DNA of 64,000 nt from Acidobacteriota bacterium (lineage in GTDB: Bacteria > Acidobacteriota > UBA6911). A program made the position numbers and the translations under genes. Positions 29,725-52,824 of this stretch are shown piece by piece. Positions within the stretch are counted from its first letter, which is position 1; every line of letters starts with the position of its first letter. The stretch is taken from NCBI GenBank assembly GCA_963664705.1, contig OY761556.1, positions 3,040,001 through 3,104,000 on the forward strand. The letters run 5' to 3'. Below the pieces are notes generated by a model that did no database searches, was not told the origin of the DNA, and was given only the letters and a program-made list of their open reading frames with translations.

Positions 29725-29734
29725 CTGAAACACC

Positions 29735-30613: not shown

Positions 30614-30636
30614 ATGAATTTAAGAACTCGAACCGT

Positions 30637-32369: not shown

Positions 32370-32439
32370 GTTCGTACCTACCTTTAATGCAAATTATTTG
32401 ATTTATGGACCACGGCGCACCCGCAGGATGTGCCTATGC

Positions 32440-32595: not shown

Positions 32596-34509
32596 TCATG
32601 CCTTTGGCCCCAAAAAGCGAGTGTTATCAGGCGATCGTTTTGTAATACCAACCCTGTCCAGATAATCCAGAAGCGGCAGCGCATATTTGCGGGTTGCATC
32701 GATGAGATACTTAAACTGCACGCTTTCCATCCGCTTCTCTTTTTTAATGTGCTCTGTCACCAGTTCCCTTGCTTTTTCCACGGCTTCCGTGTGGAAGTAC
32801 ATATCTCCGGCTACTCGTATAAGGCGCCCATGCTCCGTAAGGAGACGCAGAGCCTCGGCTGCCTCTTTGGTGCCCAGCCCGCAAACTTGCATAACTTCTG
32901 CCCTATCGGGCGGGCTGAATATGCGTTGCAGGAATAGAGACTCCACATCCTGCAGACGTTTCTCTTCTGCAATGTCAAATCGAACGCTGTGCGATGCAAG
33001 AAGCACGCGATCTCCTGTTTTACGAATTTTGCCTCGGGATTCGAGTTCACTCAGCAGCCTTCGAATAACAGGTTTGGGCAGCTTGGATGTGGTTTGGCAG
33101 CTCTCGATTTCCAGCCCGGGGCTGGCCGGATCCTCCCGATGATATTTGGATATCTCTTCCAGCAGTTCCTGCGATAGTCTCTCGAAAGTGTCTGCGTGGA
33201 TAGTAAGGCTTTGCTCGAGGATCATTATCTTTGCGGAGTCGGCAAGCGACTGAACTATTCCCTCTGCGCAGCGTACTGTCTTCTTAATTCTTTGGGCGAT
33301 AGCCTTGATGGTTAATGCCTGGTCTGGGACCGTGCGGATAGCATATTCAGCGAACTCCGCATCGTCTCGCACGGCTTTAGCTCGACAATGCACATCTTCG
33401 AGTACGACGGGCCTGTTTCGTTTCAGCTTTCGTTCCAGCGCTTCGATGATCACTCCACCGCCGATAGTCTGAACGGGCGATAAGCTTCGCAAGATGAAGC
33501 GGTCCATCGGACCGGCCACGATAGGTTGGCTAAGTTGCACCTGCACAAGCGCGCGCTCCCCGCCACGAGAAACATCCCCTTCGAGCGTGTATACGGTTGC
33601 GGTATTCTCCGAAGTGCCGGTATGGAATTTCACCGAAGATCCGTTCTTGAGATACAGCCCATCGAGAGCCAGCATATTCAATTCGCACAAAAATAGATTG
33701 GCCGGAGTGAACCATCCTTCCACTGTAATGACATCCCCCCGGGAAATCGTATCCTGGTCCCATTGCGGCACATTAATCGCGGCACATTGTCCGCATTGCA
33801 CCCGATCCGACTGGGTCGCATAAACCTGAATTGCTTTTATCCTTCCGGTCGAAGCCTGAGGATAAATGATCACCTGTTCTCCCAAGCCGGCGGAACCACT
33901 GACAGGTATGCCGGATACGATCGTTCCATACCCTTTTACCGAGAAGGTGCGCTCGACGGGCAAACGGAATATGCCGTCTGTCTGTTTTGGCTTCAGGTTC
34001 TGAACCAAGTTCGCAAGTCCTTCATAAAACGGCTCGAATCCTTCTCCAGTAATGTTTGAAAAGGGAAAGATCGATGCGTTTTGTAGGAATGTCCCATGAA
34101 GGTAAGTGCGGATTTCCTGAGTAACGGTTTCGACACGCTCCGGAAGGACCTTGTCCACCTTGGTCAAAACGACAACGCCGTGCTGCACACCCAGCAGCGA
34201 CAGGATGTCCAGGTGCTCCCGTGTCTGCGGCATCACGCCATCATCGGCTGCAATAACAAAGATCACGGCATCGATCCCTGTAGCCCCAGCCACCATAGTC
34301 TTGACAAAGTTCTCATGCCCGGGAACATCTACAATCCCCACCTCGAGATCGGCGATTTTCCAGGGAGCAAAACCCAGCTCTATCGACATCCCCCTTTCTT
34401 TTTCTTCTTTCAACCGGTCGGTTTCGCACCCAGTCAGGTTCCCGACCAGGGCTGTTTTGCCATGATCGATATGGCCCGCGGTTCCAAGCGTAATGTTCTT
34501 TTGATTCAT
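32596..34509 (-). CDS. selB: selenocysteine-specific elongation factor SelB
   Basis: GTAGHIDHGKT, DVPGHE, C-terminal winged helix TRKYALPLLDYLD; follows selA. Confidence 0.97.
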   Translation of the reverse strand: MNQKNITLGTAGHIDHGKTALVGNLTGCETDRLKEEKERGMSIELGFAPWKIADLEVGIVDVPGHENFVKTMVAGATGIDAVIFVIAADDGVMPQTREHLDILSLLGVQHGVVVLTKVDKVLPERVETVTQEIRTYLHGTFLQNASIFPFSNITGEGFEPFYEGLANLVQNLKPKQTDGIFRLPVERTFSVKGYGTIVSGIPVSGSAGLGEQVIIYPQASTGRIKAIQVYATQSDRVQCGQCAAINVPQWDQDTISRGDVITVEGWFTPANLFLCELNMLALDGLYLKNGSSVKFHTGTSENTATVYTLEGDVSRGGERALVQVQLSQPIVAGPMDRFILRSLSPVQTIGGGVIIEALERKLKRNRPVVLEDVHCRAKAVRDDAEFAEYAIRTVPDQALTIKAIAQRIKKTVRCAEGIVQSLADSAKIMILEQSLTIHADTFERLSQELLEEISKYHREDPASPGLEIESCQTTSKLPKPVIRRLLSELESRGKIRKTGDRVLLASHSVRFDIAEEKRLQDVESLFLQRIFSPPDRAEVMQVCGLGTKEAAEALRLLTEHGRLIRVAGDMYFHTEAVEKARELVTEHIKKEKRMESVQFKYLIDATRKYALPLLDYLDRVGITKRSPDNTRFLGPKA

Positions 34510-34533
34510 AACTTTCCGATGCGGAATACAGCT

Positions 34534-35937
34534 TTATAAAATCTGACGTAAGGCTTCGATCACGATGGAATCTTCTCCCGGCAGGAGCGTCCTTGGATCA
34601 AATAACACTTGCTCGTTTTGAATCCTCGCAATGATGGGTATTCGGTGCTGGCGCAGCCTGAGAACCAGCGTCTGCGCGGATATTACTTTTGGAGTGATCA
34701 CCAGCAGTGTTGTTTGAAGGTTCTGGTCGGGCAGAGATCCACTGCCTGTCTGCGAAAATCCCTGAACTGTTTTGATTTCTGCCTGCGGTTGGGCCTCTCC
34801 AAGTTTGGCCGCCAATGTTTCAGCAGCAACCTGAAGATCTTCCGGTTTCCGAAGAATCATCTCGAGTGTGGGAAGTTTACGTTCAGCATTTTTTGAGTCG
34901 AGGAAAAGCCTGAGAGTCGCTTCCAGAGCTGCAAGAGTCAATTTGCCTACCCGCAGAATACGCGCAAACTGGTTTTTCCGGATCGCCGCTATTAAATCCG
35001 ATCTCCCAAGGATGATCCCTCCCTGCGAAGCGCCGATCAGCTTGTCAGCACTGCTGGTTATGAGGTCCGAGCCTGCCGCGATGGATTGTGGCAACGTCGG
35101 TTCCGGTTCAAAGCCATACCTCGACATATCTACCAGGGATCCCGCACCCACATCATCGATCAGAACGAGTTTATGTTTGTGGGCGATCTGTACCATCTCA
35201 TCGAGAGGCACCTCTGAGGTGAACCCGTGGATTTTGTAATTGCTGGGATGCACTCGAAGAAGCGCAGCCGTGTTTTCCGTAATTGCCCTCTCATAGTCCC
35301 TGGCATGCGTTTTGTTCGTGGTCCCGACTTCCACCATCCGGGCGCCGCTGAAGGCCATTACGTCCGGAAGCCTGAACTCTCCACCAATTTCGACGAGCTG
35401 GCCCCTGGACACAATCACCTCCTTACCCTTCGCGATTGTGTTGAGTACAATGGAGGTTGCGGCCGCGTTGTTGTTGACAACGGTAGCGGCCTGCGCGCCG
35501 GTAAGGCGGCAAAGAAGGGTCTCAACGCCTTCATCCCTGGATGATCTTTGGCCTGAACCTAAACCGATCTGGAGCCTGGAGTATCCGGCAAGTTCCTCCC
35601 TTATCTCCTCAAGAGCTTCCTTTGCGAGTACGGCCCGGCCCAGTGCCGTGTGCAAAATTATGCCTGTGGCGTTGATCACCTTTTGATAAAACGGCCGCTT
35701 CATTGAATTCAGGGCGCCGAGAGTCTGGCTGAGGATCTCCTTGGAAATATCGCTTTTGCTCTTGTCCTTATAAGCGCCCTTTTGGATTTTGGCTCGGACC
35801 TTTTCTTTGACCTCGCGCACGGTCAGGGTAATGATTTCGGGGTTGAACCCGATGCCTGCCGATTGCAGTTCCGCTGATTTGAGTATGACGTCAACAGAAG
35901 GAAGATTTCGCAGGGCTTGATTCTCCTGGTTTTTCAT
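34534..35937 (-). CDS. selA: L-seryl-tRNA(Sec) selenium transferase SelA
   Basis: LRNLPSVD, VINATGIILHT, VNNNAAA, SRGQLVEIGGEFRLP, SADKL (PLP Lys). Confidence 0.97.
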   Translation of the reverse strand: MKNQENQALRNLPSVDVILKSAELQSAGIGFNPEIITLTVREVKEKVRAKIQKGAYKDKSKSDISKEILSQTLGALNSMKRPFYQKVINATGIILHTALGRAVLAKEALEEIREELAGYSRLQIGLGSGQRSSRDEGVETLLCRLTGAQAATVVNNNAAATSIVLNTIAKGKEVIVSRGQLVEIGGEFRLPDVMAFSGARMVEVGTTNKTHARDYERAITENTAALLRVHPSNYKIHGFTSEVPLDEMVQIAHKHKLVLIDDVGAGSLVDMSRYGFEPEPTLPQSIAAGSDLITSSADKLIGASQGGIILGRSDLIAAIRKNQFARILRVGKLTLAALEATLRLFLDSKNAERKLPTLEMILRKPEDLQVAAETLAAKLGEAQPQAEIKTVQGFSQTGSGSLPDQNLQTTLLVITPKVISAQTLVLRLRQHRIPIIARIQNEQVLFDPRTLLPGEDSIVIEALRQIL

Positions 35938-36064
35938 AGGTCCCCATTCCGGAGTTAAACATCGCTCGAACCTGCGCTATGTCGCGCAACTTCTTACAAT
36001 CAGTAGTATGAGAATTGAAATCAGATAATGGGTAGACGGCGGACCGACGTTAGCGTTGGGACAC

Positions 36065-36112
36065 TCAGGTATATCCGGAGAAGGTATGGATAGATTGTGC
36101 AGACCCGATCAC
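36065..36112 (-). promoter_or_regulatory. leader peptide B, (M)IGSAQSIHTFSGYT-UGA, upstream of selAB
   Basis: GGAG SD 7 nt before GTG; ends TTC TCC GGA TAT ACC TGA; conserved arm at 36035-36050. Confidence 0.75.
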
Positions 36113-36139
36113 AAGCAGACTCCAATTAATGGTTATCGC

Positions 36140-36169
36140 ATTATCAATCCGACCTTGCCAAACCGTCAA
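36140..36169 (-). promoter_or_regulatory. sigma70-type promoter for leader B and selAB
   Basis: TTGACG-N18-GATAAT on the minus strand. Confidence 0.55.
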
Positions 36170-36520
36170 TAGTTTTTTCAAGGGAGCAATTTTGAAATTT
36201 GGTGCCTTTTGAGGTAAGCGGGGAATGGCGGCAAAGCGAAAGGAATTGCAAAAAGGACCGAAACAAATTATCGTGACGATTCGTTGATTGGACAAGAAAG
36301 TGAGTTTGCCTTGAAAACGGCAGTTTGGAAAACCTGGGAAGGCGGTTGAGTCGCGGCACACGATGCTCGTGGCGAGTTCGCTGGATGCCGGCCCGGGAGT
36401 GGCAATGCCGTAACTGCTTTTTGATTTCATTCCGTTCCATCTCTTAGGCTGCATCACATCCCATTCACAACCACAAAGATCAGCGCGGATTGGTTCCGCC
36501 TCAATTTGTTTCCTTGCCTA

Positions 36521-38143
36521 ATGAGATCTACTATGACGATCAATATTGAGCGACGAAGACGTGCAATGCAGCGTTCTGTTCGCCTGGGGCACTGTGTGTG
36601 CGACCCCGCAAAGCCCTGCCCCTGCGACCTGTTCAAGGAAAAAGACATTTGCCTCTGTGCCGGCGAGCGGTTGGAGGCTCCGGTCGGACCTGTCGCACTG
36701 ACGCAGTTGGTGGAGAAAGCCGGGTGCGCGTCTAAAATCGATCAAGCGTTTCTTAAGGCTACGCTTAATAATTTGCCCACCTTCGATGATCCGCATGTTT
36801 TGGTGGGAATGCCCGCGGGCGATGACGCCGGCGTGTACGAAATTGGAAATGGGATGGCGTTGGTGCAAACCGTGGATGTATTCACGCCTTCTGTAGACGA
36901 CCCATACCTATTTGGTCAGGTGGCAGCGGCTAATTCCCTCAGCGATGTTTATGCTATGGGTGGACGGCCGATCACCGCATTGTCAATTGTCGGATTTCCC
37001 GTGCGCAAGGTCCCGGACAGCGCCCTTCATGAAATAATGCGCGGCGGCATAGATAAAATGAAAGAAGCTGGGGTCCCGGTCATCGGCGGCCACAGTATCG
37101 ATGACGATCAGATAAAGGCAGGCTTTGCCGTAACCGGACTCATCCAAACCGATCAGGTAGCCACGAATGCTAATGCCCAGGTCGGTGACTTGCTAATTCT
37201 GACAAAGCCGCTGGGGACAGGAATTGTGGCCTTCGCCCGGCAAATCGGACGTGCCGAGGAAGAATCGGTAGCCGCTGCCGTGCAATCAATGACAACGCTC
37301 AATAAGGCAGCGGCAGAGCAAATGGCGGCGCACAATGTTCATTCTTGCACAGATGTCACCGGTTTCGGGCTTATGGGGCACTTGTCGGAAATGGCCTTGA
37401 GGAGCGGAGTTGATATTGAACTGCTCTGGGATAGTCTCCCCTGGTTCCCTGGTGTTTTGCAATATGTTGCCGATGGCATTCTTCCGGGAGCCATCGAGCG
37501 AAACAAAGAGTCGTGCGGAGACCGCGTATTTTCCGGCAGCGGGATCAGTGAACTTATGCTGGATATGTGCTTCGATGCTCAAACTTCGGGAGGGTTGCTC
37601 ATGGTGGTCGACCCGAAAAACTCGGAAACGCTTTTAAGCGCGCTACACCTCGCAGGCATCCCGGATGCATGTGTCATCGGCAACGTCCGGCAAAAAGGCG
37701 AAGGCCGCGTCTTTCTTGAAACCAATGGGAGAAGGAGATTACCTATGTCGAAAGATCAATCCAAACCCACTCCAACGCCGCAGGAATCCGCGTGCTGTAC
37801 GGAACAGGCCCAACAAGCTTCCTGCTGCAGCCCTGAAATCCAGACTGCCGGCTGTTGCTCCGGTGAGGCAGAATCAGCCGCCGAGTCGGGCGCGGAAGCA
37901 CTCTATGGGCAGTTTCTTTCCGCGGTAGGAAAGCCCGGAAGTCTGGATGCATTCACCAAACAGGCGATCAACATTGCGTTGGCGGTGGGGACCCGATGTG
38001 AACCCTGCCTAAAAGCCCACATTCAGAAGGCAAAACAAAACGGTTTCACACCGGCCGAGATAGATGAGGCCGCGTGGATGGGGGTGGGATTCGGAGGGTC
38101 GCCTGCTCTGATGATGTATACACGATTAAAAAATAGCAAATAG
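36521..38143 (+). CDS. selD: selenophosphate synthetase SelD with N-terminal Cys-rich extension and C-terminal AhpD/CMD-like domain
   Basis: AGCASKI, DDAGVY, QTVDVFTP, ANSLSDVYAMGG, TDVTGFGLMGH, DAQTSGGLL; C-terminal RCEPCLKAH. Confidence 0.95.
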   Translation: MRSTMTINIERRRRAMQRSVRLGHCVCDPAKPCPCDLFKEKDICLCAGERLEAPVGPVALTQLVEKAGCASKIDQAFLKATLNNLPTFDDPHVLVGMPAGDDAGVYEIGNGMALVQTVDVFTPSVDDPYLFGQVAAANSLSDVYAMGGRPITALSIVGFPVRKVPDSALHEIMRGGIDKMKEAGVPVIGGHSIDDDQIKAGFAVTGLIQTDQVATNANAQVGDLLILTKPLGTGIVAFARQIGRAEEESVAAAVQSMTTLNKAAAEQMAAHNVHSCTDVTGFGLMGHLSEMALRSGVDIELLWDSLPWFPGVLQYVADGILPGAIERNKESCGDRVFSGSGISELMLDMCFDAQTSGGLLMVVDPKNSETLLSALHLAGIPDACVIGNVRQKGEGRVFLETNGRRRLPMSKDQSKPTPTPQESACCTEQAQQASCCSPEIQTAGCCSGEAESAAESGAEALYGQFLSAVGKPGSLDAFTKQAINIALAVGTRCEPCLKAHIQKAKQNGFTPAEIDEAAWMGVGFGGSPALMMYTRLKNSK

Positions 38144-38177
38144 ATCGAGCAGGCAAACAAGTTGACCTAATTCACGC

Positions 38178-38207
38178 TTGACCTTGTATTGCAGGATGCC
38201 GTAAATT
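38178..38207 (+). promoter_or_regulatory. possible sigma70 promoter for tRNA-Sec
   Basis: TTGACC-N18-TAAATT, 7 nt before the tRNA 5' end. Confidence 0.45.
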
Positions 38208-38214
38208 CATCAGC

Positions 38215-38309
38215 GGAGGTGACGGGGGCCCGGTGGCTCCCGCGGTCTTCAAAACCGTTGAGCCGCCTTTAAAGCGGCAGGTGGGTTCAACTCCCATTCG
38301 CCTCCGCCA
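38215..38309 (+). tRNA. selC: tRNA-Sec (anticodon UCA)
   Basis: 95 nt; 8-bp acceptor stem GGAGGTGA/TCGCCTCC; loop CTTCAAA with TCA at 38249-38251; long variable arm; GCCA end. Confidence 0.97.
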
Positions 38310-38341: not shown

Positions 38342-39091
38342 TTATCTTGTTGCCCGCAAATATACTCCCTCGGTGTACCTGGATGTGGTGTATCCGGTTT
38401 TGCCGAGAATCTTAGCCGAACGAAATCCGGCTTCGCCTAGTTTCGCCAGGTAGTCCCCACCCGGCAACGCTCCGGCGATTCAGGTCGACCAGGCATCCAT
38501 GCTCGCCAATGTCTCTTCTGGAATGCTTTCTACCACCACAAGATCGGCGGCCACAAAATTTCCGTCCGGACGTAACACCCGAGCGATCTCCCTAAAGGCT
38601 TTATCCTTATCAGGGACCAGGTTTAGAACACCGTTTGAAATCACGAAATCGAATGACGCATTTTCAAAAGGCAATTCTTCAGCCGATCCCTCTTGGAAAC
38701 GAAGGTTTTGCATAGCGGTTTCCGCCCGGGCTTTGCAGGCCCAATCGAGCATTTCGGCCGTAAAATCAATGCCGAAAACCAGTCCCTCCGGCCCCGCCAG
38801 GAGCGCTGAGACAAAAGAGTCAAGACCACAGCCACAGCCGATATCAAGGACTCGCTCTCCTTTACGCACGGAACGGATGCTGAATGGATTCCCCACTCCG
38901 ACGAATCTATCCACGACATCCTTCGGAATAGTACGGATCAACTCACGAGGGTATCCAAGCCGTTCCAAGCTCTCTTGTCCGACAGGATAGGGGAACAGAC
39001 CTTCCGCCTTATGCGAAACACCTCGGTATTTGCTCTTTATGGCAGACTGCAGTCGTTCTTTCCAATTGTCAGCGAAACAATTATCCGTCAC
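38342..39091 (-). CDS. ArsM (arsenite methyltransferase)-like SAM-dependent methyltransferase, selenoprotein (Sec204, UGA at 38480-38482)
   Basis: GVGNP, VLDIGCGCGLD, SNGVLNLVPDK; W-S-T-U-IAGAL matches the ArsM WxxCIAGA motif; frame continues 45 codons to TAA; 11-bp SECIS-like stem TTGCCGGGTGG-GGA-CTACCTGGCGA starts 12 nt after the UGA. Confidence 0.88.
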
Positions 39092-39195: not shown

Positions 39196-39210
39196 ATGCA
39201 GATTTCGCAT
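39196..39210. promoter_or_regulatory. LysR recognition box ATGC-N7-GCAT
   Basis: perfect T-N11-A dyad overlapping the LysR start, about 65 nt upstream of the start site implied by a TACAAT -10 (39145-39150, minus strand) of the divergent methyltransferase. Confidence 0.55.
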
Positions 39211-40131
39211 AGAATAATTTCCCAACTGAATTTTCAACACTTGCGCACATTCCAGATATTGGCACGCCTTGAGAACTTCTCCAGAACAGGCGATCAAGTC
39301 GGACTATCGCAATCAGCCGTTTCAAGGCACATCAGTGCGTTGGAAGAGGCATTGGGGCTACGGCTATTTGAACGTATCGGACGGCGCGCAATATTGACCT
39401 CGGCCGGAAGAATTTTGCGAGAACGAATTGAGACGCTTATGCGAGAAGCCGATGCTCTGCCGAACATTCTTAAAGATTTGGCAGAAGGGATACAGGGCGA
39501 TCTCAGGATTGGCGCCTGCATTACCGCCGCAAATGCCATTCTTCCGCAAGCTCTCGGGTTGTACAGGCATCAGTACCCACACATCGGGCTTTCACTTCAA
39601 CCGGGCAATAGTTCTGATATTATCGAATGCCTTCGACGGGGTGAGATCGATCTTGCATTTGTTGCCTCGGACAGGTTGCCTTCCGATGTTAAAACTCTGG
39701 CGGAAATTGCGGATGATCTGATTTTATTCGCCTCGCCGGATCACCCAATCTCGATCAAGCGTAACATTGAAGCGAATGATCTCGCTGATTGCGACTTTAT
39801 CCAGCGAGAGGCTCCATCAGACACACACTCGATGGTCACGCGTTGGCTAGAAGCGAAAGGAATTCAGTTGCGAAATCTGATGGATGTGTGGTGACCGGAC
39901 ACTATCAGGCGCCTGGTAGGCGCTGGGTTGGGAATATCTGCACTGTCCCGCCGATTAATTGCGGACGAACTCCTGAAGAGAACTCTTAAGGAGTTGCGAG
40001 TCAAAGGATGGCCGCTGTCCAGGAAAATTCGAATTGCTGTTATGAAGGAGTATTTTTTGTCCAGGGCAACGAAGCAGTTCCTTCAGTTGCTGCGACACAA
40101 GGTCCCGGAGGGACGGTTCTTTGATGCCTAA
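39196..40131 (+). CDS. LysR-type transcriptional regulator with in-frame UGA (candidate Sec233 at 39892-39894)
   Basis: HTH motif LSQSAVSRHISALEEALGLRLFER; read-through gives MDVW-U-PDTIRRLVGAGLGISALS and a typical 311 aa length; hairpin CAGGCGCCT-GGT-AGGCGCTG with its loop 20 nt after the UGA. Confidence 0.85.
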
Positions 40132-40252: not shown

Positions 40253-41350
40253 TTACTTCTTCTTTTCCGCCCCTCTCTTTCCGCCCAGGTTGAACTGAAC
40301 ACCCAATTGCAGGCTGGTTTTTGCAAAATCTGCAGCTCTTTGGGTATTGGTGAAATCCAACCCGACATATTGATGAAGGCGAACAGGAACAGTGAGGTAG
40401 TAGGTCGCGAACCCCGCATCCCAAGCTATTCCCGGGGAAAGCGAAACCATGTACCCTGGCTGACGGTATCCAGATGTGGCGGTTAAAACGTTATAAACCG
40501 GAACACCAGCAACCTGGCTGCCGACAGACAACGAAAAGCGCTTGAAATGTGGAACAGCCGTGGATATGCCGCCGCTAAACTGGTAGGAATCCGGAGCGGT
40601 CAGATAGCGTACATTTTCCGCAACTGCCTGCGGACCGGCCGGGTTTACGGCCGCACCGAACGCGATGGTGTCGTTTTGCTTTTTGAGACTGAATAGGTAA
40701 AGCCCGCTTCCATAGACGCTGAATCGCCCTATCGAGCGGAACCCTTGAGCAGACAGCCTCAAGCCTAAAGCACCACTGCCAGGCTGAACAGCAGGATACA
40801 CGGGACGATTGATAATATTTGCCCCTTTGGAGTCGGGATAGGGGACCTGATAATTGGACTCCCCGGTTGGCAACCGAAGTCCCAAACCAACACTGATGTT
40901 CTGTTTGGTATTTTTTTCAGGATTCAGCAACCACATCCGGCCGCCAATGACGGCATCGCCGAAACCGTGCACGTGCTGATAATAGCGAGTGCCTGCGACT
41001 ACATTGCTCCAATAAGACCAGAGAACATAGGGAACTTCGGCGGTAAGGTTGATCCTGCGGGAGAGGCCATAGGCTCCCTGTAGATTCAGTGTGTCGCCTC
41101 CCTCCCACACCGAATTTGTCGATATGACGTCGTACCCACGAAACGTCTCATCGGTCGCAAATCGACCCCAATAGCTATTCAACTGAAACTGGCCCTTTTG
41201 CAGGTACGGGCCCATCATGCCGCCACGCATGGGCGACATACTCTTGGACAAAATTCAACCACAGCCCTGCGAGAATGCAGACTGAGGTATGAGTAGAGCG
41301 AGGCCGATTACCATCGGTAACAGCCAGCTCAAGTAATCACACTTCCTCAT
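40253..41350 (-). CDS. exported beta-barrel protein, paralog 1, candidate selenoprotein (signal peptide, then QG-C-G-U; UGA at 41255-41257)
   Basis: AAGGA SD; MRKCDYLSWLLPMVIGLALLIPQSAFS/QGCG-UGA-ILSK in frame with the 332 aa ORF; GFGD...LRLPTG barrel motif; hairpin ATGTCGCC-CATGCGT-GGCGGCAT after the UGA. Confidence 0.85.
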
Positions 41351-43683: not shown

Positions 43684-44787
43684 CTATTTTGCTGGTTTCT
43701 TTCCGCCGAGGCTGAAAGTCACGCCGAATTGCAGACTCATTTTATTCAGATTCCCGCTTTGCTGGGTGCCGGTAAAGTCCTTCAATATACCACCCCACAC
43801 ACGGACGGGAACTGTTAGAAAATAGGATCCAAGCTTTGTTCTCAGCGACAGGCCTGGGTTCAATGTTACAAGATATCCTGGCTGCCGATATCCCTCGGAA
43901 CCAGTCAGGACATTAAACGTCGGCACTCCCGCAATCTGGCTGCCCAAAGAGACGGAGAGCCCCTTCAAATGCGGGACAGGCGCGGACATGCCGGCATTAT
44001 ATAGATAGGAATCGGGCGTGGCGTTATAGCGCTTATTCGCCGCTACGGCGTCAGGCCCACCCGGGTTAAATGTGGACATGATTGACTGGGTATTGTTCTG
44101 CTCCTTGAAACTGAACAGATATAGAGCATTTGCATACACAGCGAAATGGCTGAACCTTCGGTATCCCTGCATTGCCACTCGGAGCCCGGCCGCACCGCTG
44201 CCAGGTTGTACGTCCGATTTTGCAGCATGGAGCTTGATATCCTGTCCCAGAATATTGGGGAACATAACCTGATAGTCCGAGTTTCCAGTAGGTAATCTGA
44301 AGGCCAACTGGAAGGCCATGTTCTGTTTTGTATTCTTTTCAGGATTGAAGAGCCATACGCGCCCGCCAATTATGGCATCACCCAGGCCTTTGGTTTTCAT
44401 TTCACGCCGTGAGCCTGCAATGGGATAGTTCCAGTAGGAATCGAGTAAGACCGGAACATCTGCGGTGATGTTGATTCTGCGGGTAAGGGCATACGCGCCC
44501 TGGAAGTTTAAGGATGTGCCACCCTGTTTTGGAGCCGCGTCCGCATTAATGAGGTCGCTCCGCAACTGGGTTCCGGTGAAGTATTGGTCGCTGTTAAACC
44601 GATTCAAACTGCCTTGAATCTGCCATTCTCCCTTTTCCAGATAGGGTCCAAGTAGGCCGCCGCTCATGGGGGCCACATTTCTTGCTAAAATTCAACCACA
44701 ACCTTGTGAAAACGCGCTCTGTGGCGCAAGCAGAGCCAGGCAAAGTGCCCACGGCACCAGCCAGCCCAGCAATTTCATCTTTGTCAT
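43684..44787 (-). CDS. exported beta-barrel protein, paralog 2, candidate selenoprotein (QG-C-G-U; UGA at 44692-44694)
   Basis: AAGGA SD; MTKMKLLGWLVPWALCLALLAPQSAFS/QGCG-UGA-ILAR; UGA is codon 32 in both paralogs; GGCC...GGCC hairpin downstream. Confidence 0.85.
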
Positions 44788-45019
44788 TTCTATTCCTTTC
44801 CATACACAGTTGTTTCAGCATTCAGAAAACCAGTTCATTTGACCAAAGCTTCCTCGCATTATGCAACAAGAAAGTTCTGCCAAATTGAGTAAGGCCAATT
44901 TCGCATACCTCCATAGGTCCGCGGCACTTTTATTGTCCGAAGGCAAATCCTAACTCAGATCTATTTTGCTCCGAAAAGCCTTGCTTCTATTCCCCTATCG
45001 GTGACACACTTATTCTGAC

Positions 45020-45061
45020 ATGAATAAAGTATTTACATCCCGCTTCTCCGGCTTCACTTGA
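45020..45061 (+). promoter_or_regulatory. leader peptide D, MNKVFTSRFSGFT-UGA, upstream of the RelE-like gene
   Basis: ends TTC TCC GGC TTC ACT TGA (synonymous variants); conserved arm CGTCGGTACGCCGTC at 45078-45092. Confidence 0.75.
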
Positions 45062-45153
45062 TAATCCTTTCCATACACGTCGGTACGCCGTCATCCTGAT
45101 TTCTCATTTTCGATAATCCAAATTGTGAGCTCATTGCAGCTGCGGAGCTTTGC

Positions 45154-45669
45154 GTGCAAGACACTGCGAAAGATAAGCCTCTTCTTATTCATCGACTCAA
45201 AACCTTTGATCGGAGCCTCGAAGAATTGCGGCACAAAGCCGGATCTGGTGAAATTGCGGCCAGCAAAGCGGAACAGCTGATTCGGCAGCTTTCGGGATCC
45301 AACGATATCAACTTGCGCAGGCAATTCAGATTTACCCGGAGTGGTGAAAACAGGATTACTTATTGTAGAAAATATGATTTGGGTTGCGGGTATCGGCTTG
45401 TATTCATCAGGAAAGGAGAGCAAATCGCCTTTCTATATGTTGGGACACATGACGACTGCTTTCGTTGGATTAGCCGAAATAGGGGATTTACCTACGAATT
45501 CGTTGATTCAATGAATAATCCCGAGCCTCCACGGCCAGAAGCTGAAACCAATCATTTCTCCGATGAACATCAATATCTTGAAACAGACGAATATGAAGAC
45601 CAGCTGATGCGCAAAATAGATGACAAAATTTTGCGGGTTGTCTTTGCCGGCCTGACAACACAGTCTTAG
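45154..45669 (+). CDS. hypothetical protein with RelE/YafQ-like core and acidic tail
   Basis: RKYDLGCGYRLVF...FLYVGTHD resembles the RelE/YafQ-superfamily C-terminus; GGAG SD before GTG. Confidence 0.6.
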   Translation: MQDTAKDKPLLIHRLKTFDRSLEELRHKAGSGEIAASKAEQLIRQLSGSNDINLRRQFRFTRSGENRITYCRKYDLGCGYRLVFIRKGEQIAFLYVGTHDDCFRWISRNRGFTYEFVDSMNNPEPPRPEAETNHFSDEHQYLETDEYEDQLMRKIDDKILRVVFAGLTTQS

Positions 45670-45845: not shown

Positions 45846-48197
45846 TTAAGCTTTACCAAGCGCTTTAAGCACCTTATCCGGCGTGGCAGGCGGGTCTACC
45901 CATTTATCAATTGCATTGTAAATGGCACAGATGATCATATGTGTGTTTGACATGGAATGGCTGATGCCGTTGGCCCCGTAGGTTCCATTGCCGGCGCGCG
46001 TTTCAACCAGACTCGTCTGTAGCTTCGGCACATCCAGCATGCCCGGTTTTTTGTACTCGATCATGTTGGTATTGAGTTTTACGCCGGTCTGCTTATCGTA
46101 GAAGTAGTCTTCAAACATCTGGCATCCCTGGCTGAAGAACGCAACCTGGTCGAGTTGCCCCTCAAGCGAAATGCGCCTGATTACTTTGCCCGAGTCCACC
46201 GCGGCTCCGTACCTCAGGATTTCCACCTCACCCGTTTCTGTATCGACAGCCACTTCGCAGTACAGAGTATTCAGTGTGTCATACTTGCTGGGCCATAGCG
46301 GTGCGGGAGGATGCCCGGCAAATGTCGCAAATACGTTTGACGAGAGACTCTTGATTGGTACCCCGGCAGTCTTGTCTGACTTGAGTACTATTTTGCCATT
46401 TACTATATCCAGGTCTTCCGGCTTCTTGCCCTTCAACGGGTTTGGAGCCGTCTTTCGCGGCGGTCCGAATCCTCCAGCCGCCGGTTTGTCCGCTTCAGCA
46501 ATCGCCGCTTCAAAAATGCGCTGTCTGAATATCTGGCAGCATTCTTTCATGACCCAACCCGTAGCTACAAGTCCGTCTGCCCCTCCGCTAATAGACACGA
46601 ACATTGCATTGGGATCATAATCAATGCTGATATCCGCAGCTTCCAGGCCGAGCTCTTCTGCGGCAATCATGGCAACGCCTTCAACAGAAAATACCCCAGC
46701 ATGGGGACCCTGGATCGGCATGTGCACAACTCCGTTCCGAAGCTCGAGCACTGCGTGAAAATCACTGCCCATTGCATGCCTTGGGCACATCTGGTATCTG
46801 AAACCGGCCCCGTGCATCCTGCCGTCAGGCAGTTTCTTTGCGCCGTTTTTATGCCAGGTCCAGTTCATCATTTTCTTTCCGGCTTCGATGCAGGCGTCAA
46901 AGCTGGGAACCGATCTTGTGTCCTTCTGTCCGTCAGGCCCATGGAGGTTCAGCCTGGCAATATCGATTGGGTCTTTCCCAAGTTTCTCGGCAATTATATG
47001 AATTGCCATAGTAACGGAGTCCCAATTGAAGGGACAAAATTGCGAACTGAATGGCATCAGACCGCGATTGCTGTCCACGATATCCATTCTCTGCCGGATG
47101 TTAAGGCATTTTGTTCCTATGTACGGTCCGTAACCCTGATCGCCAATAGTCCCGAAAAATGAATTGCCTGTAGTGCCGCCGTCGGCAATAGAGAAATCAT
47201 CGAAAGCGGTAATCAGTCCGTCCTTTGTAAATCCCACCTTCATGTGAATAAAACGCTGCTGAATCATGAAATCAAAGGTGTCCTTGCGTGTGTTTATGCA
47301 ACGCACGGGCCTTCCGGTCCTCTTTGCCAGAAGCGGCGTAATCTGCTGGGATCGTCGTATCGTCCAGTCGCAGTACTTGCCACCCTGAAAGAGCCCTTCC
47401 TGTACCGTCTTTTCCGGCGGCAGACCGTACAATTGTCCGATCGCGTTTTTGCCGCCGCTGGCGTGCCAGACAGCGCCTTCTATATGGAGATTATCTCTTC
47501 CAAGGTAAGGATCATCGAACCACCACGCTACGGAACTGTGCGGATTGGGAGAAGCGGAAGCATACGTAGGCATGTTTAGGTCGTATTCGATAATGTAATC
47601 GGCTTCCTTGAAACCTTGCTCTACATCTCCCTGGTTTTGATTTGAATAGGAAACATTCCCTTTTTTCGGAGGATTGTTATTCCCTCCCCCACCGAAAGGA
47701 TTGCTGGGACCGCCTCTATCCTCGGGCCGAATCACCGGAGCGCTGGCTTCTCTTCCCGCTTTGATATCCACGACATGCGGAAGGATTTCCCATTCCACAT
47801 TAAGTGCCTTTAAAGCCTCATCGCAGATATCTCCATTTTCCGCTACCACAATGAATCCCACTTCTATGTTTTCTTCTTCTGCAACATCGGAAATAAAAGG
47901 CTGGGGCGCACCGCCCATGCCGCCACGCTGCAGCTTTTTTAAGTCTTCATCCTTCCATGTGACGATATCCACAACTCCGGGAACAGCCTTGGCTTTTTCG
48001 AGATTGAAACTTTTTATCCTTGCGTGCGCATGAGGACTGCGCAGAAATTTGGCTTCGAGCATATTGGGAACGACATAATCGATTCCGAATTTAGCGAGAC
48101 CCGAGGCAACTGCCCATGACAGTTTGCCGGGCAGGTTTGCCCTGCCGACTACCCTGAAATCCTCTCTTTGTCCGTTAGTTCCTGTTAAATCAGCCAT
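45846..48197 (-). CDS. xanthine dehydrogenase-family molybdopterin-binding subunit (atypical active-site motifs)
   Basis: LRSPHAHARI, LAKRTGRPV, EVAVDTETGEV, VDSGKVI. Confidence 0.88.
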   Translation of the reverse strand: MADLTGTNGQREDFRVVGRANLPGKLSWAVASGLAKFGIDYVVPNMLEAKFLRSPHAHARIKSFNLEKAKAVPGVVDIVTWKDEDLKKLQRGGMGGAPQPFISDVAEEENIEVGFIVVAENGDICDEALKALNVEWEILPHVVDIKAGREASAPVIRPEDRGGPSNPFGGGGNNNPPKKGNVSYSNQNQGDVEQGFKEADYIIEYDLNMPTYASASPNPHSSVAWWFDDPYLGRDNLHIEGAVWHASGGKNAIGQLYGLPPEKTVQEGLFQGGKYCDWTIRRSQQITPLLAKRTGRPVRCINTRKDTFDFMIQQRFIHMKVGFTKDGLITAFDDFSIADGGTTGNSFFGTIGDQGYGPYIGTKCLNIRQRMDIVDSNRGLMPFSSQFCPFNWDSVTMAIHIIAEKLGKDPIDIARLNLHGPDGQKDTRSVPSFDACIEAGKKMMNWTWHKNGAKKLPDGRMHGAGFRYQMCPRHAMGSDFHAVLELRNGVVHMPIQGPHAGVFSVEGVAMIAAEELGLEAADISIDYDPNAMFVSISGGADGLVATGWVMKECCQIFRQRIFEAAIAEADKPAAGGFGPPRKTAPNPLKGKKPEDLDIVNGKIVLKSDKTAGVPIKSLSSNVFATFAGHPPAPLWPSKYDTLNTLYCEVAVDTETGEVEILRYGAAVDSGKVIRRISLEGQLDQVAFFSQGCQMFEDYFYDKQTGVKLNTNMIEYKKPGMLDVPKLQTSLVETRAGNGTYGANGISHSMSNTHMIICAIYNAIDKWVDPPATPDKVLKALGKA

Positions 48198-48255
48198 TGT
48201 ATACCCCCATGATTAATTGCAGCGCTGCGTAGGTTGCGATAATGTAATTAGATTG

Positions 48256-49299
48256 CTAAGCTAATTTTTCCAGAATCGGCTGTAATCTTGATGGCTCCAG
48301 TCCGATTGAAAAGGCGTTGATACCTTCCATAATTTTGAAAGATCCTGATTCAGACTTCGCGTCCATAATCAGTACATTCCCTCCAAAGCGTGGTTTCATA
48401 ATTCCCACACGGTGTTGAACCTGCCCAATGGTTTCAGAGTCAGTGAGGTTCTTTTCCATTAAAGACTCTATTGTGAGATCCGGCCCATTGATTGTCCGCT
48501 TATGCATATCCGCGTATACCGGCGTTTTGTTCACATCCGGAACAACGGACAGAAAGATCACTCTGGAATCAAGCACAGAAGATGTATCGCCGTTGCGATT
48601 CCGCAGCAGTCTTTGGGTTGCAATCTCAACCGGAACATAGTAAGAATCCACTTCTCTGGCCAAAGGCATCTTAAAAGCTATATATCTGCCCAGTTTTTTC
48701 GAATGGAGAACAAATTCCGGGATGCGCTTTGCAGGGTGATGGAACTGACGTCCGAAAGCAATTTCTCCGATTTCGACAACAAGAGGCTTATTGTCGGCAT
48801 CGAGAGCGACCCCAAGAATTCCATCAGGTTCGAGCTCAACGGTAAGGGCAAGCGCAACCCAGGCTTCATACCCTCTCCGAAACATTGCTGTTGTATCTAC
48901 GATAAGATCGTTTCCCACAACCCATTCAAAATCACCCTCAGGTATTTTCCCCTGAACCAGTTCAAATAGCCGGTTGTATATGAGGCGCATCATCCCTTGT
49001 TGGGGATTGTGAAGAAAGCTGGACAGATCGAGCGGCAACTGAATTTTGCAATTTAGTGTATTGGACAACCTGGTTTCAGACTCAATGTAATTTTGCGAGA
49101 GAGCGAAAATGTCCAATGCAAATGAACGGCTCCATGATTCGACGATTGCCGCTCGGACGTTGTCAAAATGCGCATAGAATCTGTCACGCCGATCTTTAGG
49201 AATGTGCACTTCATGTGGAGAAATATGGATTTCCGGGTTTGACGAAATGAATTCACTCAGAATCCCATACTCGCGTTTCCACTTTGGATCAAGAGTCAT
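48256..49299 (-). CDS. hypothetical protein inserted between the XDH-family FAD and Mo subunit genes
   Basis: 347 aa ORF; visibly more AT-rich than its neighbours. Confidence 0.65.
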   Translation of the reverse strand: MTLDPKWKREYGILSEFISSNPEIHISPHEVHIPKDRRDRFYAHFDNVRAAIVESWSRSFALDIFALSQNYIESETRLSNTLNCKIQLPLDLSSFLHNPQQGMMRLIYNRLFELVQGKIPEGDFEWVVGNDLIVDTTAMFRRGYEAWVALALTVELEPDGILGVALDADNKPLVVEIGEIAFGRQFHHPAKRIPEFVLHSKKLGRYIAFKMPLAREVDSYYVPVEIATQRLLRNRNGDTSSVLDSRVIFLSVVPDVNKTPVYADMHKRTINGPDLTIESLMEKNLTDSETIGQVQHRVGIMKPRFGGNVLIMDAKSESGSFKIMEGINAFSIGLEPSRLQPILEKLA

Positions 49300-49319
49300 A
49301 AATATCTTGTCTATGAACC

Positions 49320-49394
49320 GTCCATCGGGTCGGAATCGGAATCGAAATTAGGCTTCCAACCCCAATACCGATTCCGACCGCGAATCCGATGGAC
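49320..49394. repeat. imperfect inverted repeat containing GGAATC hexamers
   Basis: TCCATCGG-GTCGGAATCGG...CCGATTCCGAC...CCGATGGA. Confidence 0.55.
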
Positions 49395-49405
49395 ATTCTA
49401 AATGG

Positions 49406-50356
49406 TTAGACAGTTGCCAGGAGCGCTCGTTTGACGAGCGTCTTTGCGATCTGCACTTTGTACTTGGTGGCACTCAACGGCTTGGCGTCTTCAACCGCAG
49501 CCGCGCCGGCCGCTTCGGCATTGGCTTCATTGATAGCCTTGCCTGCGATCGCCGCTTCGGCCTTGACCGCGCGATACGGTTTCGGGGCAACGGCATTCAG
49601 AGCAATCCTCGGAGCTCCTCCCCCCACCATCACGGCACAGTTGACGATCGGGAAATCGATCGACTTGCGGATGGCGAATTTGAGGAAAGCGCTCTTGGCA
49701 CCGGCCGGAGGGGTCGGGACCTGGATTTCGGTGATGAATTCGCCGGCAGCGAGAACGGTGTTGCCGGGGAATTTGACATCAAAGAAATTCTCGGCATTGA
49801 TCTTGCGCGTGTTGGTCACCACGGAGGCATTCAAAGCAATGAGAGCCGGGGCGACGTCGCTGGGATGAACGGCGATGCATTTGTTGACGTTGCCGAAGAT
49901 GGAGTGATAGCGGTTGTCGCCCATCATAGCAAAGCAGGTTGTGCCACCCTTGCGGACGCAAGGGAACCGGTTTTCCGGCTTCCGGAAGTACCAGCAGCGG
50001 TGGAGCTGAGCGATGTTGCCGCCGATGGTGCCCATGTCGCGGACATGGGGCGTGGCGACGCGCAGAGCTGCCTGAGCCAGAGCGGTGTATTTCGCATTGA
50101 TGTCCTTGTTGGCTGCGACATCCGCAAGGCGTGTGGCGGCGCCGATTTTCAGGATACCGGCTTCTTCCTTGATGTAATCGAGACCCGGGGTAACGGTCTT
50201 GATGTTAATCACGGCTTCGGGGTACGTGGGAAGGATGTTGTCCTTGAGCCGGCCGATGAGATCGGTGCCCCCGGCAATGATTTCTGTTTTTCCGCCGGCA
50301 AGGGCAGTTTTGACCTCGGCCAGGGTTTTTGCATTCGTATGATTGAAACCTTTCAT
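49406..50356 (-). CDS. xanthine dehydrogenase-family FAD-binding subunit (PaoB/YagS-like, with 4Fe-4S insert)
   Basis: IAGGTDL, MGTIGGNI, RCWYFR...C..KGG..C...C insert. Confidence 0.92.
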   Translation of the reverse strand: MKGFNHTNAKTLAEVKTALAGGKTEIIAGGTDLIGRLKDNILPTYPEAVINIKTVTPGLDYIKEEAGILKIGAATRLADVAANKDINAKYTALAQAALRVATPHVRDMGTIGGNIAQLHRCWYFRKPENRFPCVRKGGTTCFAMMGDNRYHSIFGNVNKCIAVHPSDVAPALIALNASVVTNTRKINAENFFDVKFPGNTVLAAGEFITEIQVPTPPAGAKSAFLKFAIRKSIDFPIVNCAVMVGGGAPRIALNAVAPKPYRAVKAEAAIAGKAINEANAEAAGAAAVEDAKPLSATKYKVQIAKTLVKRALLATV

Positions 50357-50368
50357 GAGTGTCTCCTC

Positions 50369-51091
50369 CTATGCCTTGCCCATAGCCTGAGCTGCTTCCA
50401 TAATTGCGGTAGGATGCCGCGGGTAGGTTCCACAGCAGCAGATATTGCCGGCGAGAGCCTGTTTGCAGTCATTCTCGGTCGGATTGGGATTCTTCTGCAG
50501 CAGAGCCTTGGCCGAAACGACGAAGCCCGGAGTGCAGTAGCCGCACTGCATCGCGTCCCACTTGCAGTAGGACTGGATGAGGGAGCGCCATTTGGGATCG
50601 GCGGCAATTCCTTCGACGGTCTCGATGGATTTGCCCTCGCATTCGACCGCCAGGGTCGAGCAGGAGAGGACGGTTCTGCCGTCAATGTTCACGGAGCAGG
50701 AACCGCATACGCCGCGGTCACACATCTGCTTGGCTCCGGTAAGACCGAGTTTGAACTGCAGAGTGCGCTGAAGGGTCCAGTGCGGCTCGATGAGGACTTC
50801 GTACTCCTTGCCGTTCACCTTGAGTTTGGTAGCAACAGGGAGCGCATATCCGGGATGTGCCTGGGCGAAGTGGGTTTTCAATCCGCCATACGTGTTAAAA
50901 TCTTTTGCGCAGACCGGGCACTTGAAGTTGGTGATGGTCGTGGGAGCTTCTGCGGCAGCCGCAGCAGCCGCTTCGGTGGACAGGGTAAGGCCTGCTCCCA
51001 GAGTGCTGCCGGCTACAACAGCGCCTGCACTTTTAAGAAAATTTCTTCGATTCAGTCCTGTTCCTTCGTTGATAATTGTTTCATCTGCCAT
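50369..51091 (-). CDS. xanthine dehydrogenase-family 2x[2Fe-2S] subunit with Tat signal and C2H2-like finger
   Basis: NRRNFLK; CPVC-x12-H-x4-H; CDRGVCGSC; QCGYCTPG; NICCCG. Confidence 0.93.
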   Translation of the reverse strand: MADETIINEGTGLNRRNFLKSAGAVVAGSTLGAGLTLSTEAAAAAAAEAPTTITNFKCPVCAKDFNTYGGLKTHFAQAHPGYALPVATKLKVNGKEYEVLIEPHWTLQRTLQFKLGLTGAKQMCDRGVCGSCSVNIDGRTVLSCSTLAVECEGKSIETVEGIAADPKWRSLIQSYCKWDAMQCGYCTPGFVVSAKALLQKNPNPTENDCKQALAGNICCCGTYPRHPTAIMEAAQAMGKA

Positions 51092-51233
51092 GGCAGGTCC
51101 TCCTTAAGATTATTTGCCATCGCGTATCTAAACGCATACGCAAAGGACAGCCAGCCGAACTTGGGTGGCCTGGGAAAATCAAACCGCATTTTTAGGAAAG
51201 TGAATGACGACGTACCGGCGTTTCTTAGTGCGT

Positions 51234-51275
51234 TCAGGTAAAGCCGGAGAACTTATAGCGTGGGATTCTATTCAT
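51234..51275 (-). promoter_or_regulatory. leader peptide C, MNRIPRYKFSGFT-UGA, upstream of the molybdoenzyme operon
   Basis: ends TTC TCC GGC TTT ACC TGA; conserved arm CGCCGGTACGTCGTC at 51206-51220. Confidence 0.75.
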
Positions 51276-51426
51276 ATCAGGAGGAGAGTATGCAACACCA
51301 ATAAAGGCCGAAACAAGCATTTTCTGTCTATCCGACGCTTCCTCCAGGGACAGGATTCCATGTACATCAATTGCATAGGTACGAGAAAACGTGGCACCGA
51401 ACTCACAACCCACTCCAGGTTGCCAA

Positions 51427-52824
51427 GTGGGTGTAACTTCCTTTCTGTAAATTCAATTTAGTTTTTATCAAATCTGATTTGGTTTTGGGACCGGAGTGAA
51501 GGCGAGGGAACCGAGCCAAAACGAAGATCCCAAAACCAAGCAATAGCTTGTGTTGGGTGGGCCAAATCTGTTTTCCTATCCTTTGAATCGCCAAACTCAA
51601 TGGAAAGGAGACCGAAGTGGCCCACCAATCCGAATCTAACGTAGTGGATACCGTCGTTCAACTTCTTTGTGAATCCGGACTCTCCAAAATGGGGGAGGCC
51701 GTACGAATCATGCTCAATGAGGCAATGCGAATTGAGAGGTCGCGAGCAATTGAAGCCGAACCCTATCAGCGCACCGATCGACGGAAGGGTTATAGCAACG
51801 GTTTTAAACCCAAAACGCTGGACACGCGCCTTGGGGCGATCACATTTCAAGTGCCACAGACCCGTGGAGTGGAGTTTTATCCCTCGGCTCTGGAAAAAGG
51901 CATACGCAGCGAGCGGGCGCTTAAACTCGCTATCGCCGAGATGTATGTGCAAGGCGTGTCCACCCGCAAGGTCACCGAAGTGATGCGGCAGCTCTGCGGA
52001 CTCGATGTCTCCAGCACGCAGGTCAGTCGCGCGACTCAAGCCCTGGACGAAGAACTGAAGGCTTGGCGCCAGCGACCCATTGGCGAAATACCTTATCTGG
52101 TGCTGGACGCGCGATACGAAAAGGTTCGCCATGGCGGTTCAGTTGTTTCCTGCGCAGTTCTAATCGCGGTTGGCATCACTGCAAAGGGACATCGTAGCTT
52201 ATTGGGCGTGAGTGTCTCGTTGAGCGAGGCAGAGGTACATTGGCGTGAATTTCTCGGCAGCCTGCAGGATCGGGGCCTCCATGGAGTCAAGCTGATCGTC
52301 AGCGACGACCATTCTGGGCTCAAGGCAGCCGGTCAGGCCCGGTTTACAGGAGTTCCCTGGCAACGATGCCAGTTTCACTTGCAGCAGAATGCCGGCCACT
52401 ATGTACCTCGCATAGAAATGCGCAGCGATCTCGCGGCCGACTTGCGCGCTGTTTTTGACGCGCCGGACCGACCAGAAGCCGATCGCCGACTGGAAATGGC
52501 TGTACGCAAATATGAGAAATCTGCACCGAAGCTGGCTGCCTGGCTGTCCGCCAATATACCCGATGGCCTAACAGTGTTTATATTGCCGATTTCTCACCGT
52601 CGACGACTCCGGACATCGAATGTTCTGGAGCGGCTCAATAAAGAAATCAAGCGCCGTACACGTGTCGCGACTTTGTTCCCCAATGAGGCATCATTGTTGC
52701 GGCTTGTCAGTGCAGTACTGATGGAAATCAGTGAAGAATGGGAGACTGAAAAGATTTACTTAACCATGGAAAGCAGCGGCCTAATCACACAGGAATGAAT
52801 TTACAGAAAAAAAGTTGCTTCGCC
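51427..52824 (+). mobile_element. complete IS256-family insertion sequence
   Basis: imperfect 29-bp terminal IRs sharing TTTCTGTAAATTCA; 8-bp target duplication GTTGCCAA at 51419-51426 and 52825-52832. Confidence 0.93.
51617..52798 (+). CDS. IS256-family transposase
   Basis: EMYVQGVSTRKV, LDARYEKVR, SDDHSGL, WQRCQFH, TSNVLERLNKEIKRR. Confidence 0.97.
   Translation: MAHQSESNVVDTVVQLLCESGLSKMGEAVRIMLNEAMRIERSRAIEAEPYQRTDRRKGYSNGFKPKTLDTRLGAITFQVPQTRGVEFYPSALEKGIRSERALKLAIAEMYVQGVSTRKVTEVMRQLCGLDVSSTQVSRATQALDEELKAWRQRPIGEIPYLVLDARYEKVRHGGSVVSCAVLIAVGITAKGHRSLLGVSVSLSEAEVHWREFLGSLQDRGLHGVKLIVSDDHSGLKAAGQARFTGVPWQRCQFHLQQNAGHYVPRIEMRSDLAADLRAVFDAPDRPEADRRLEMAVRKYEKSAPKLAAWLSANIPDGLTVFILPISHRRRLRTSNVLERLNKEIKRRTRVATLFPNEASLLRLVSAVLMEISEEWETEKIYLTMESSGLITQE

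Follow-up and report, generated by a model that had tools for sequence, protein, structure and literature searches.

The DNA analysed here is a stretch of 64,000 nucleotides (hereafter the window) from an Acidobacteriota genome, and it contains four copies, A to D, of a short leader motif, in which an upstream open reading frame (uORF) of small size, ending on UGA, is followed by a conserved downstream arm. The motif is not a product of chance: across the 6.9 Mb genome its two halves coincide at these four sites and nowhere else. The locus raises the question of what such a leader does ahead of operons with little obvious in common. A preliminary description of the window proposed that the arm pairs back onto the last uORF codons, so that translation would operate an RNA switch, or alternatively that it folds by itself into a SECIS-like hairpin, with Rho-type attenuation downstream. 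From comparisons with relatives we conclude that the element is real, and probably a selenocysteine (Sec) sensor. The positions of the leader parts and of the genes behind them are given in Table 1.

Table 1. Leader copies and the genes that follow them, in window coordinates.
Feature	Coordinates	Strand	Remarks
Copy D, predicted sigma-70-type promoter	44981-45010	+	-35 at 44981-44986, -10 at 45005-45010; uORF starts 9 nt on
Copy D, uORF MNKVFTSRFSGFT-UGA	45020-45061	+	13 codons
Copy D, second in-frame stop	45062-45064	+	UAA adjoining the UGA
Copy D, downstream arm	45077-45091	+	SECIS-like hairpin, weak; its GGU (45082-45084) follows the UGA by 20 nt
Copy D, G-poor pyrimidine-rich tract	45092-45121	+	candidate Rho loading site
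Gene after copy D	45154-45669	+	171-aa protein without Pfam or NCBIfam match; weak RelE/ParE-like lead only
Copy C, predicted promoter	51287-51316	-	-10 ends 11 nt ahead of the uORF start
Copy C, uORF MNRIPRYKFSGFT-UGA	51234-51275	-	second stop UAA at 51225-51227
Copy C, arm	51207-51221	-	hairpin; GGU 17 nt after the UGA
Operon after copy C	45846-51091	-	TAT 2Fe-2S subunit, FAD subunit, 347-aa protein without assignment, xanthine-dehydrogenase-family molybdopterin subunit
Copy B, SD-like GGAG and promoter	36120-36123; 36140-36169	-	
Copy B, uORF ending HTFSGYT-UGA	36065-36112	-	GTG start, 15 codons; second stop UAA at 36050-36052
Copy B, arm	36036-36050	-	GGU 19 nt after the UGA
selA-selB after copy B	32596-35937	-	the genome's second, island-borne set
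Copy A, uORF MTAFHLYTFSGFT-UGA	32440-32481	-	second stop UAG at 32434-32436
Copy A, arm	32412-32426	-	divergent, different hairpin predicted; GGU 18 nt after the UGA
Gene run after copy A	23084-32369	-	corrinoid protein, two URO-D-family methyltransferases, RACo activator, hydantoinase-like protein, DUF1638, class-V aminotransferase (NifS-like)
Island selD and tRNA-Sec	36506-38305	+	Cys-form selD; UGA occupies this site in the second selD of the genome

The next start codon lies 73 (A), 130 (B), 145 (C) and 95 nt (D) after the UGA. None of the four copies has a match in Rfam, either at the gathering threshold or with E up to 10. A Mutator-family transposase gene (51617-52798, +) is found just upstream of the copy C promoter. 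The 171-aa protein behind copy D falls into unnamed ESM Atlas clusters at 0.97-0.98, with RelE/ParE-like leads below 0.9, and a homologue of it is encoded behind a UGA-UAA leader in L166.

Searches of relatives and metagenomes brought the number of distinct leader copies to 106, the window's four included. The row L157 was dropped ahead of the analyses of spacing and pairing probability. Nineteen copies served to build a model on sequence alone, and this model had matches in 21 of 51 family genomes; two weak matches were left aside. Three of 46 distinct profile matches (L048, L049 and the second L069 match) were discarded as chance; the 43 copies used below are spread over this genome and, within the genus, 18 of 29 others, and the named records that carry these copies are Acidobacteriota assemblies. 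Two GTDB-wide pattern scans gave 72 loci, made up of 25 that were already known, 36 judged to be chance and 11 that were new, eight in acidobacterial bins and three in bins labelled as other phyla. As the 11 new loci were kept by eye, they are not used as a test. A metagenome scan yielded 53 further distinct matches, a set that was not selected for the second stop described below. When the phylum was sampled evenly, the pattern was present in 3 of 401 genomes, all three within the genus; the leader is thus patchy. One genome, G046, was counted only in background tallies, and no leader claim depends on it. The arm alone was rejected as a genome-wide element, having 68 matches, eight of them intergenic, and no enrichment relative to a control pattern. 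At L160 and L216, tandem leaders 124 nt apart precede a single gene. The copies L046 and L047 have an in-frame UAA five codons ahead of the UGA and a damaged arm, and have probably decayed.

The uORF has a narrow range of lengths. An ATG stands exactly 13 codons ahead of the UGA in 31/43 copies, and in the metagenome set, for which the search pattern did not require a start, 51 of 52 copies have a start codon between -15 and -9 codons. A -35/-10 pair with the -10 ending 10-13 nt before the uORF start is present in 65/99 copies (17% in shuffles). An SD-like 4-mer occurs in only 3/99 copies, compared with 1193/2581 controls. Based on the closeness of the -10 to the start and the scarcity of SD-like 4-mers, the uORF is near-leaderless. 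The peptide end FSGFT had been ascribed to all copies; copy B reads FSGYT, and only G-F-T-UGA is strongly conserved across relatives (Gly in 38, Phe in 42 and Thr in all 43 of the 43 copies), with all four Gly codons in use and a looser conservation of the Phe and Ser that come ahead of Gly-Phe-Thr. When the search pattern imposed no particular stop codon, 30 of 31 genus matches had UGA. In the corresponding GTDB scan, the promoter signature was present in 15 of the 119 matches listed (of about 130), all of them ending on UGA, and among the matches listed it accompanied 0/98 of those with another stop. Across the copies compared, the UGA of the leader is invariant.

A second in-frame stop follows the UGA within five codons in 39/43 copies, the other two frames having such a stop in 2 and 1. 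Among 10,000 shuffles the mean was 7.8 and the highest count 18, and ordinary UGA-ending ORFs of the genome gave 204/1350. The result was similar in the metagenome set (50/53, with 5 and 9 in the other frames). Both the position of the second stop (+1 to +5) and the identity of its codon vary among copies, so that it is not one inherited accident, and these comparisons indicate that it is under selection. The simplest inference would be that the UGA is sometimes read through and that the ribosome must then stop at once. The second stop tells us that read-through matters, but leaves the inserted amino acid unspecified. In five copies, D included, it is the very next codon, and read-through would shift the ribosome by only three bases. 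The switch would then be between a ribosome held and a ribosome released, and not a shift in position or a refolding of a long stem.

The proposed long stem, in which the arm pairs with the FSGFT codons, was analysed directly. All four pairings quoted in the preliminary description can be written as claimed. The UGA had been placed at the top of the stem; it lies instead inside a large loop of ~20 nt, with no compact tip. The claim that most differences retain pairing holds for the inner pairs and breaks down for the outer ones: across the 43 homologues, 12 copies break the one and 12 the other of two outer C-G pairs that lie at synonymous positions, nine copies break an A-U pair, and a change on both sides was seen in only two cells. 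The covariation score of the stem in these homologues, 0.153, was equalled by 115/500 shuffles, which does not support a conserved long stem as the switch, and in the first 19 copies 0/7 pairs covary. Its predicted pairing probability has a mean of 0.10 and a median of 0.003 over 105 copies, and is <=0.04 in the four window copies. Relative to shuffles, the fold z-scores are -1.22 (A), +0.60 (B), +1.21 (C) and +0.94 (D), the value for copy A being due to other stems and not to the long stem. In 14/106 copies GGU is replaced by GGG, a change that breaks the long stem and is permitted by the SECIS model. The long-stem switch is the weaker part of the earlier claim, and the SECIS-like alternative the stronger.

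As stated for that alternative, a GGU lies 17-20 nt after the UGA in every window copy (Table 1), and the spacing is the same as in the LysR SECIS candidate of the window, where GGU lies 20 nt after the UGA. Covariation in the larger alignment is present for this downstream mini-hairpin as a local stem (three-pair register, 2/500 shuffles). Two hairpin registers compete. In the longer one, RCG-Y-CG-GUN-CG-Y-CGU, 93.5% of cells are paired; its core alone does not covary (304/500) because it is too invariant. Together with three flanking pairs it was equalled by 0/500 shuffles, versus 8/500 for the other register, in alignment A4 (50/54 copies; four with indels in the arm were left out). In the metagenome set the flanking pairs, which form the variable extension, are paired in 74/156 cells, with 1/2000 shuffles as high. 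As shuffles ignore kinship among copies, the significance of the hairpin is overstated by all of these values. The distance from UGA to loop is 17-20 nt in 100/106 copies and 16-26 nt in 106/106, based on consensus anchoring, by which one divergent copy is poorly anchored. The apex is C-GG(U/G)NC-G (second G in 50/50, first G in 49/50), and the upper stem comprises 2 bp, a 1x1 mismatch and 3 bp, followed by the variable extension.

The bacterial SECIS model has a 3-9 nt loop with GG or GU, a spacing of 16-37 nt, a stem of 4-16 bp and an energy of -7.5 kcal/mol or lower (excerpt of PMC13188914, which also mentions a selenium cofactor of molybdoenzymes). The leader hairpin falls within the spacing range, and its apex agrees with the loop. 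Its energy does not: -7.5 kcal/mol is reached by 12/106 copies (median -3.95), and the hairpin is far weaker than the native SECIS regions of this genome (n=5, -8.3 to -17.5 kcal/mol). Native SECIS loops of the genome's predicted selenoprotein genes also lie 17-20 nt after the UGA (FdhA, SelD, one MvhD and the ArsM-like genes), and FdhA has the same C-GGUNN-G apex as the leader. With the ribosome-covered part removed, the predicted probability of the hairpin is 0.00 in A, 0.05 in B, about 0.5 in C and 0.03 in D, with a mean of 0.25. Because of the energies and the low predicted probabilities in A, B and D, we call the element SECIS-like and not a member of the SECIS class. Judged from sequence, the spacing and loop of the arm fit the bacterial model; together with the covariation of the local hairpin and the selected second stop, this favours the combination of a SECIS-like GGU hairpin with putative Rho-type attenuation, which the preliminary description had offered as an alternative.

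The C/U-rich tracts quoted for copies B, C and D are all present, and no intrinsic terminator was found on the sense strand behind any of the four copies. The G content after the arm is 0.135, compared with 0.245 in randomly oriented intergenic control windows; C is 0.26, and thus the tract is G-poor rather than strongly C-rich. The genome has two rho genes (643143 and 3893937, G000:C1) and two NusG-domain genes (3290284 and 2307209, G000:C1). Features of Rho attenuators found at the leader are therefore a conserved short uORF between promoter and operon, a G-poor tract, the lack of a sense-strand terminator in 4/4 copies and the presence of Rho in the genome.

Among the 43 copies, the first gene is selA in four, and tusE-selB, yedE or yedF in one each (7/43 together). 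The others precede 13 xanthine-dehydrogenase-like operons, nine TonB/Oar receptors, two corrinoid operons, two activase genes, two TauB/SaoA-like ABC transporters and eight mixed or unclear cases. In three more copies yedE, yedF, selD or a gene for an SclA-like lyase is found further down the operon. A second selA is present in 4/23 near-complete genomes of the genus, and all four second copies carry the leader. Copy L053 is followed by a Cys-form MvhD, where the MvhD of this genome has UGA, and six copies (L142, L147, L167, L175, L198 and L201) precede predicted outer-membrane selenoproteins. A YedE transporter of M. maripaludis rises under selenium depletion (excerpt of PMC11097638). The largest downstream classes, xanthine-dehydrogenase-like and TonB/Oar, have a putative selenium link at most, and this counts against a selenium regulon. 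No Sec-to-Cys differences were found between the island molybdopterin subunits and their paralogues. SelB co-occurs with the leader in 10/11, and the tRNA-Sec model scores above its cut-off in 28/30 genomes of the genus; given that selA is present in 94/101 genomes of the class, the co-occurrence with SelB is uninformative.

This genome has two complete Sec systems, the other set lying at 2046702, 3463159, 3657367 and 6559014. The island SelB is only 34% identical to the other SelB, the tRNA-Sec differs, and the island SelD is a Cys form fused to a CMD-like domain. Similar Sec islands are present in G020, G007 and G002.

Sequence comparison brings out the anatomy of the leader, its invariant UGA, the second stop, the covariation of the local hairpin, the G-poor tract and the selenium-related targets. 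We think it fairly probable that the leader is a Sec-sensing attenuator that switches genes on when the supply of Sec is low. At sufficient selenium, the hairpin would bind SelB-GTP-Sec-tRNA and the UGA would be decoded as Sec; the ribosome would then stop at the second stop and leave, and Rho would end the transcript. With Sec-tRNA scarce, the ribosome would wait at the UGA, where the GFT end may slow RF2, by analogy with PepNL at its UGA. The waiting ribosome would shield the C/U-rich leader from Rho, by analogy with TnaC, SpeFL and CruR, and the operon would be transcribed. The direction of the response and the Rho step are the least certain parts of this reading. Its most specific form, an Acidobacteria regulon under a Sec-released arrest peptide in which GFT holds the ribosome at the UGA, the weak SECIS acts as a threshold and the second stop leads to Rho, is a tentative proposal that we would not yet call probable. 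An operon near 6002823 (-), a 94%-identical paralogue of the copy C operon, has kept the promoter and part of the arm and has lost GFT-UGA; its uORF is now 43 codons long and reaches the SD of the next gene. This one case is consistent with the attenuator, as an anecdote. Another paralogue, near 4314534, has only the 3' part of the arm.

Several other explanations account for part of these data. The leader could encode an arrest peptide that works without SelB, stalling on GFT-UGA in the manner of PepNL or TnaC, with the arm as a pause or Rho-related element and with release by near-cognate read-through (such as by Trp-tRNA) or through binding of a small ligand that contains selenium or sulfur. 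The precedent is PepNL, a peptide of 14 aa whose UGA stall is relieved by Trp read-through (excerpt of PMC11890864). The narrow uORF length (ATG at -13 in 31/43), the weak hairpin and the conservation of G-F-T at the level of codons, in which all four Gly codons occur and for which Sec decoding by itself gives no reason, agree with it as well. We nevertheless consider it unlikely, because it leaves unexplained why a GG(U/G) loop stands at a constant distance of 17-20 nt and why selA, selB, yedE and yedF are among the targets, and there are no tryptophan genes among the listed downstream genes. In a second explanation the arm pairs with the Ser-Gly-Phe-Thr codons in untranslated RNA and hides the GGU loop and the Rho site, and a ribosome melts this stem, the refolding being the switch. 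Its inner pairs are possible in most copies. Among the copies taken from genomes, all 54 keep the pair at the third position of the Thr codon, one of them by a U-A double change, and 47/52 copies from metagenomes could form a pair at the third position of the codon ahead of Gly. The Thr codon is ACC or ACT in 30/30 unforced matches, versus 52% in genome usage, but this pyrimidine bias could be explained by Rho-site composition or tRNA choice. Given also the lack of covariation, the frequent breaks in the outer pairs and in the A-U pair, and the low predicted probability in the window copies, we regard such a switch as improbable.

The sign of the response could also be reversed, with the same Sec sensing and with Sec insertion turning the operons on, so that the cell would make its selenium-dependent proteins and the additional Sec machinery only with selenium available. 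Some enzymes of the xanthine-dehydrogenase family require a selenium cofactor. The six copies that lead predicted selenoprotein outer-membrane genes agree at least as well with a leader that selenium turns on as with the preferred direction, and in T. primitia selenium raises transcription through a UGA/SECIS (excerpt of PMC3892789). However, the selected immediate second stop would remove the ribosome after read-through, with no continued coupling, and uptake genes and a Cys-form MvhD are among the genes downstream; we consider this sign improbable. Finally, the arm could act at the level of DNA, as an RNA polymerase pause or an ops-like loading site for a NusG paralog, its position near the UGA merely synchronising transcription with the ribosome. 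The second NusG-domain gene, the conservation of the arm core beyond what a SECIS needs and the persistence of part of the arm in the paralogous leader without GFT-UGA would suit this explanation. The variable flanks covary as an RNA stem, however, and what we take to be a likeness of the arm to ops is only partial, making a DNA-level role highly improbable.

The Sec-sensing attenuator has counterparts among known systems. A ribosome held versus released, with a stop-codon stall that shields a Rho site, is described for CruR, TnaC and SpeFL (excerpt of PMC12360218). According to the same excerpt, CruR-bfrG of Bordetella, TnaC and SpeFL have, like the leader, a short uORF and no intrinsic terminator, and scarcity of the metal turns on a putative metal importer under the control of CruR. 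Unlike this group, the leader has a proposed signal consisting of a charged tRNA brought via SelB to the UGA, has in addition a hairpin and a second stop, and is without a CXXC or RAPP motif; stalling and Rho action are putative here. PepNL of E. coli precedes pepN and is read through by Trp-tRNA (excerpt of PMC11890864), whereas the leader described here precedes selenium-related targets, its conserved hairpin stands at SECIS spacing, and a further stop comes within five codons of the UGA. By analogy, the leader's mode of action would resemble that of CruR or TnaC, combined with a release of the PepNL kind. The SECIS-like element in the 5' UTR of E. coli selAB is likewise a SelB-type hairpin upstream of selA-selB that provides feedback from the supply of Sec-tRNA (excerpt of PMC13449736), a function that is putative here. 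In E. coli the element is 3 nt away from the SD of selA and acts by repressing translation, and the excerpt describes no uORF; the leader hairpin follows the UGA of a uORF, with roughly 40 nt (A) to 110 nt (C) or more between it and the next start codon. In the Treponema primitia fdhF gene, UGA decoding at a UGA/SECIS is linked to transcription elongation, as proposed here, but the effect occurs inside a selenoprotein gene and selenium means on, while the leader is a dedicated uORF heading several unrelated operons (excerpt of PMC3892789). Two established designs were rejected for the leader: a translational operator of the E. coli selAB type, since the hairpin is not next to an SD and the start codon is 73-145 nt after the UGA, and a classical attenuator of the trp/his type, since no intrinsic terminator was found at the four copies and the long stem is without covariation.

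To our knowledge, the sensing of selenium status in bacteria is known from few cases, and searches of open-licence papers brought up no Sec-sensing leader peptide. If our reading is true, leader-peptide attenuation would also cover the 21st amino acid, and a leader only about 90 nt long would combine stop-codon arrest with SelB recoding, both of them known mechanisms. The 106 copies provide a list of candidate genes for selenium uptake and salvage in soil and anaerobic Acidobacteria. If the tentative proposal of a Sec-released arrest peptide holds, the motif would also mark unrecognised selenium-scavenging genes, namely Oar/TonB receptors, operons for a corrinoid methyltransferase and a double-cubane reductase, and a new family of outer-membrane selenoproteins.

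The window itself encodes two paralogous predicted outer-membrane proteins (43684-44787 and 40253-41350, both on the - strand), in which a signal peptide is followed by SQGCG-UGA-IL, with the UGA at 44692-44694 and 41255-41257. Their relatives have AQG-UGA-IL (L142, L147, L167 and L198) or Cys (L141) at this site. The first of the two, with the UGA translated as Sec, has no NCBIfam match, and these proteins are a candidate new selenoprotein family. The LysR gene mentioned above (39196-40131, +) has an in-frame UGA at 39892-39894, followed 20 nt later by a GC-rich GGU hairpin, and read-through gives a full LysR of 311 aa, a candidate selenoprotein regulator. An ArsM-like methyltransferase gene (38342-39091, -) has a UGA at 38480-38482 that aligns with a Cys of its paralogues and is accompanied by a strong hairpin.
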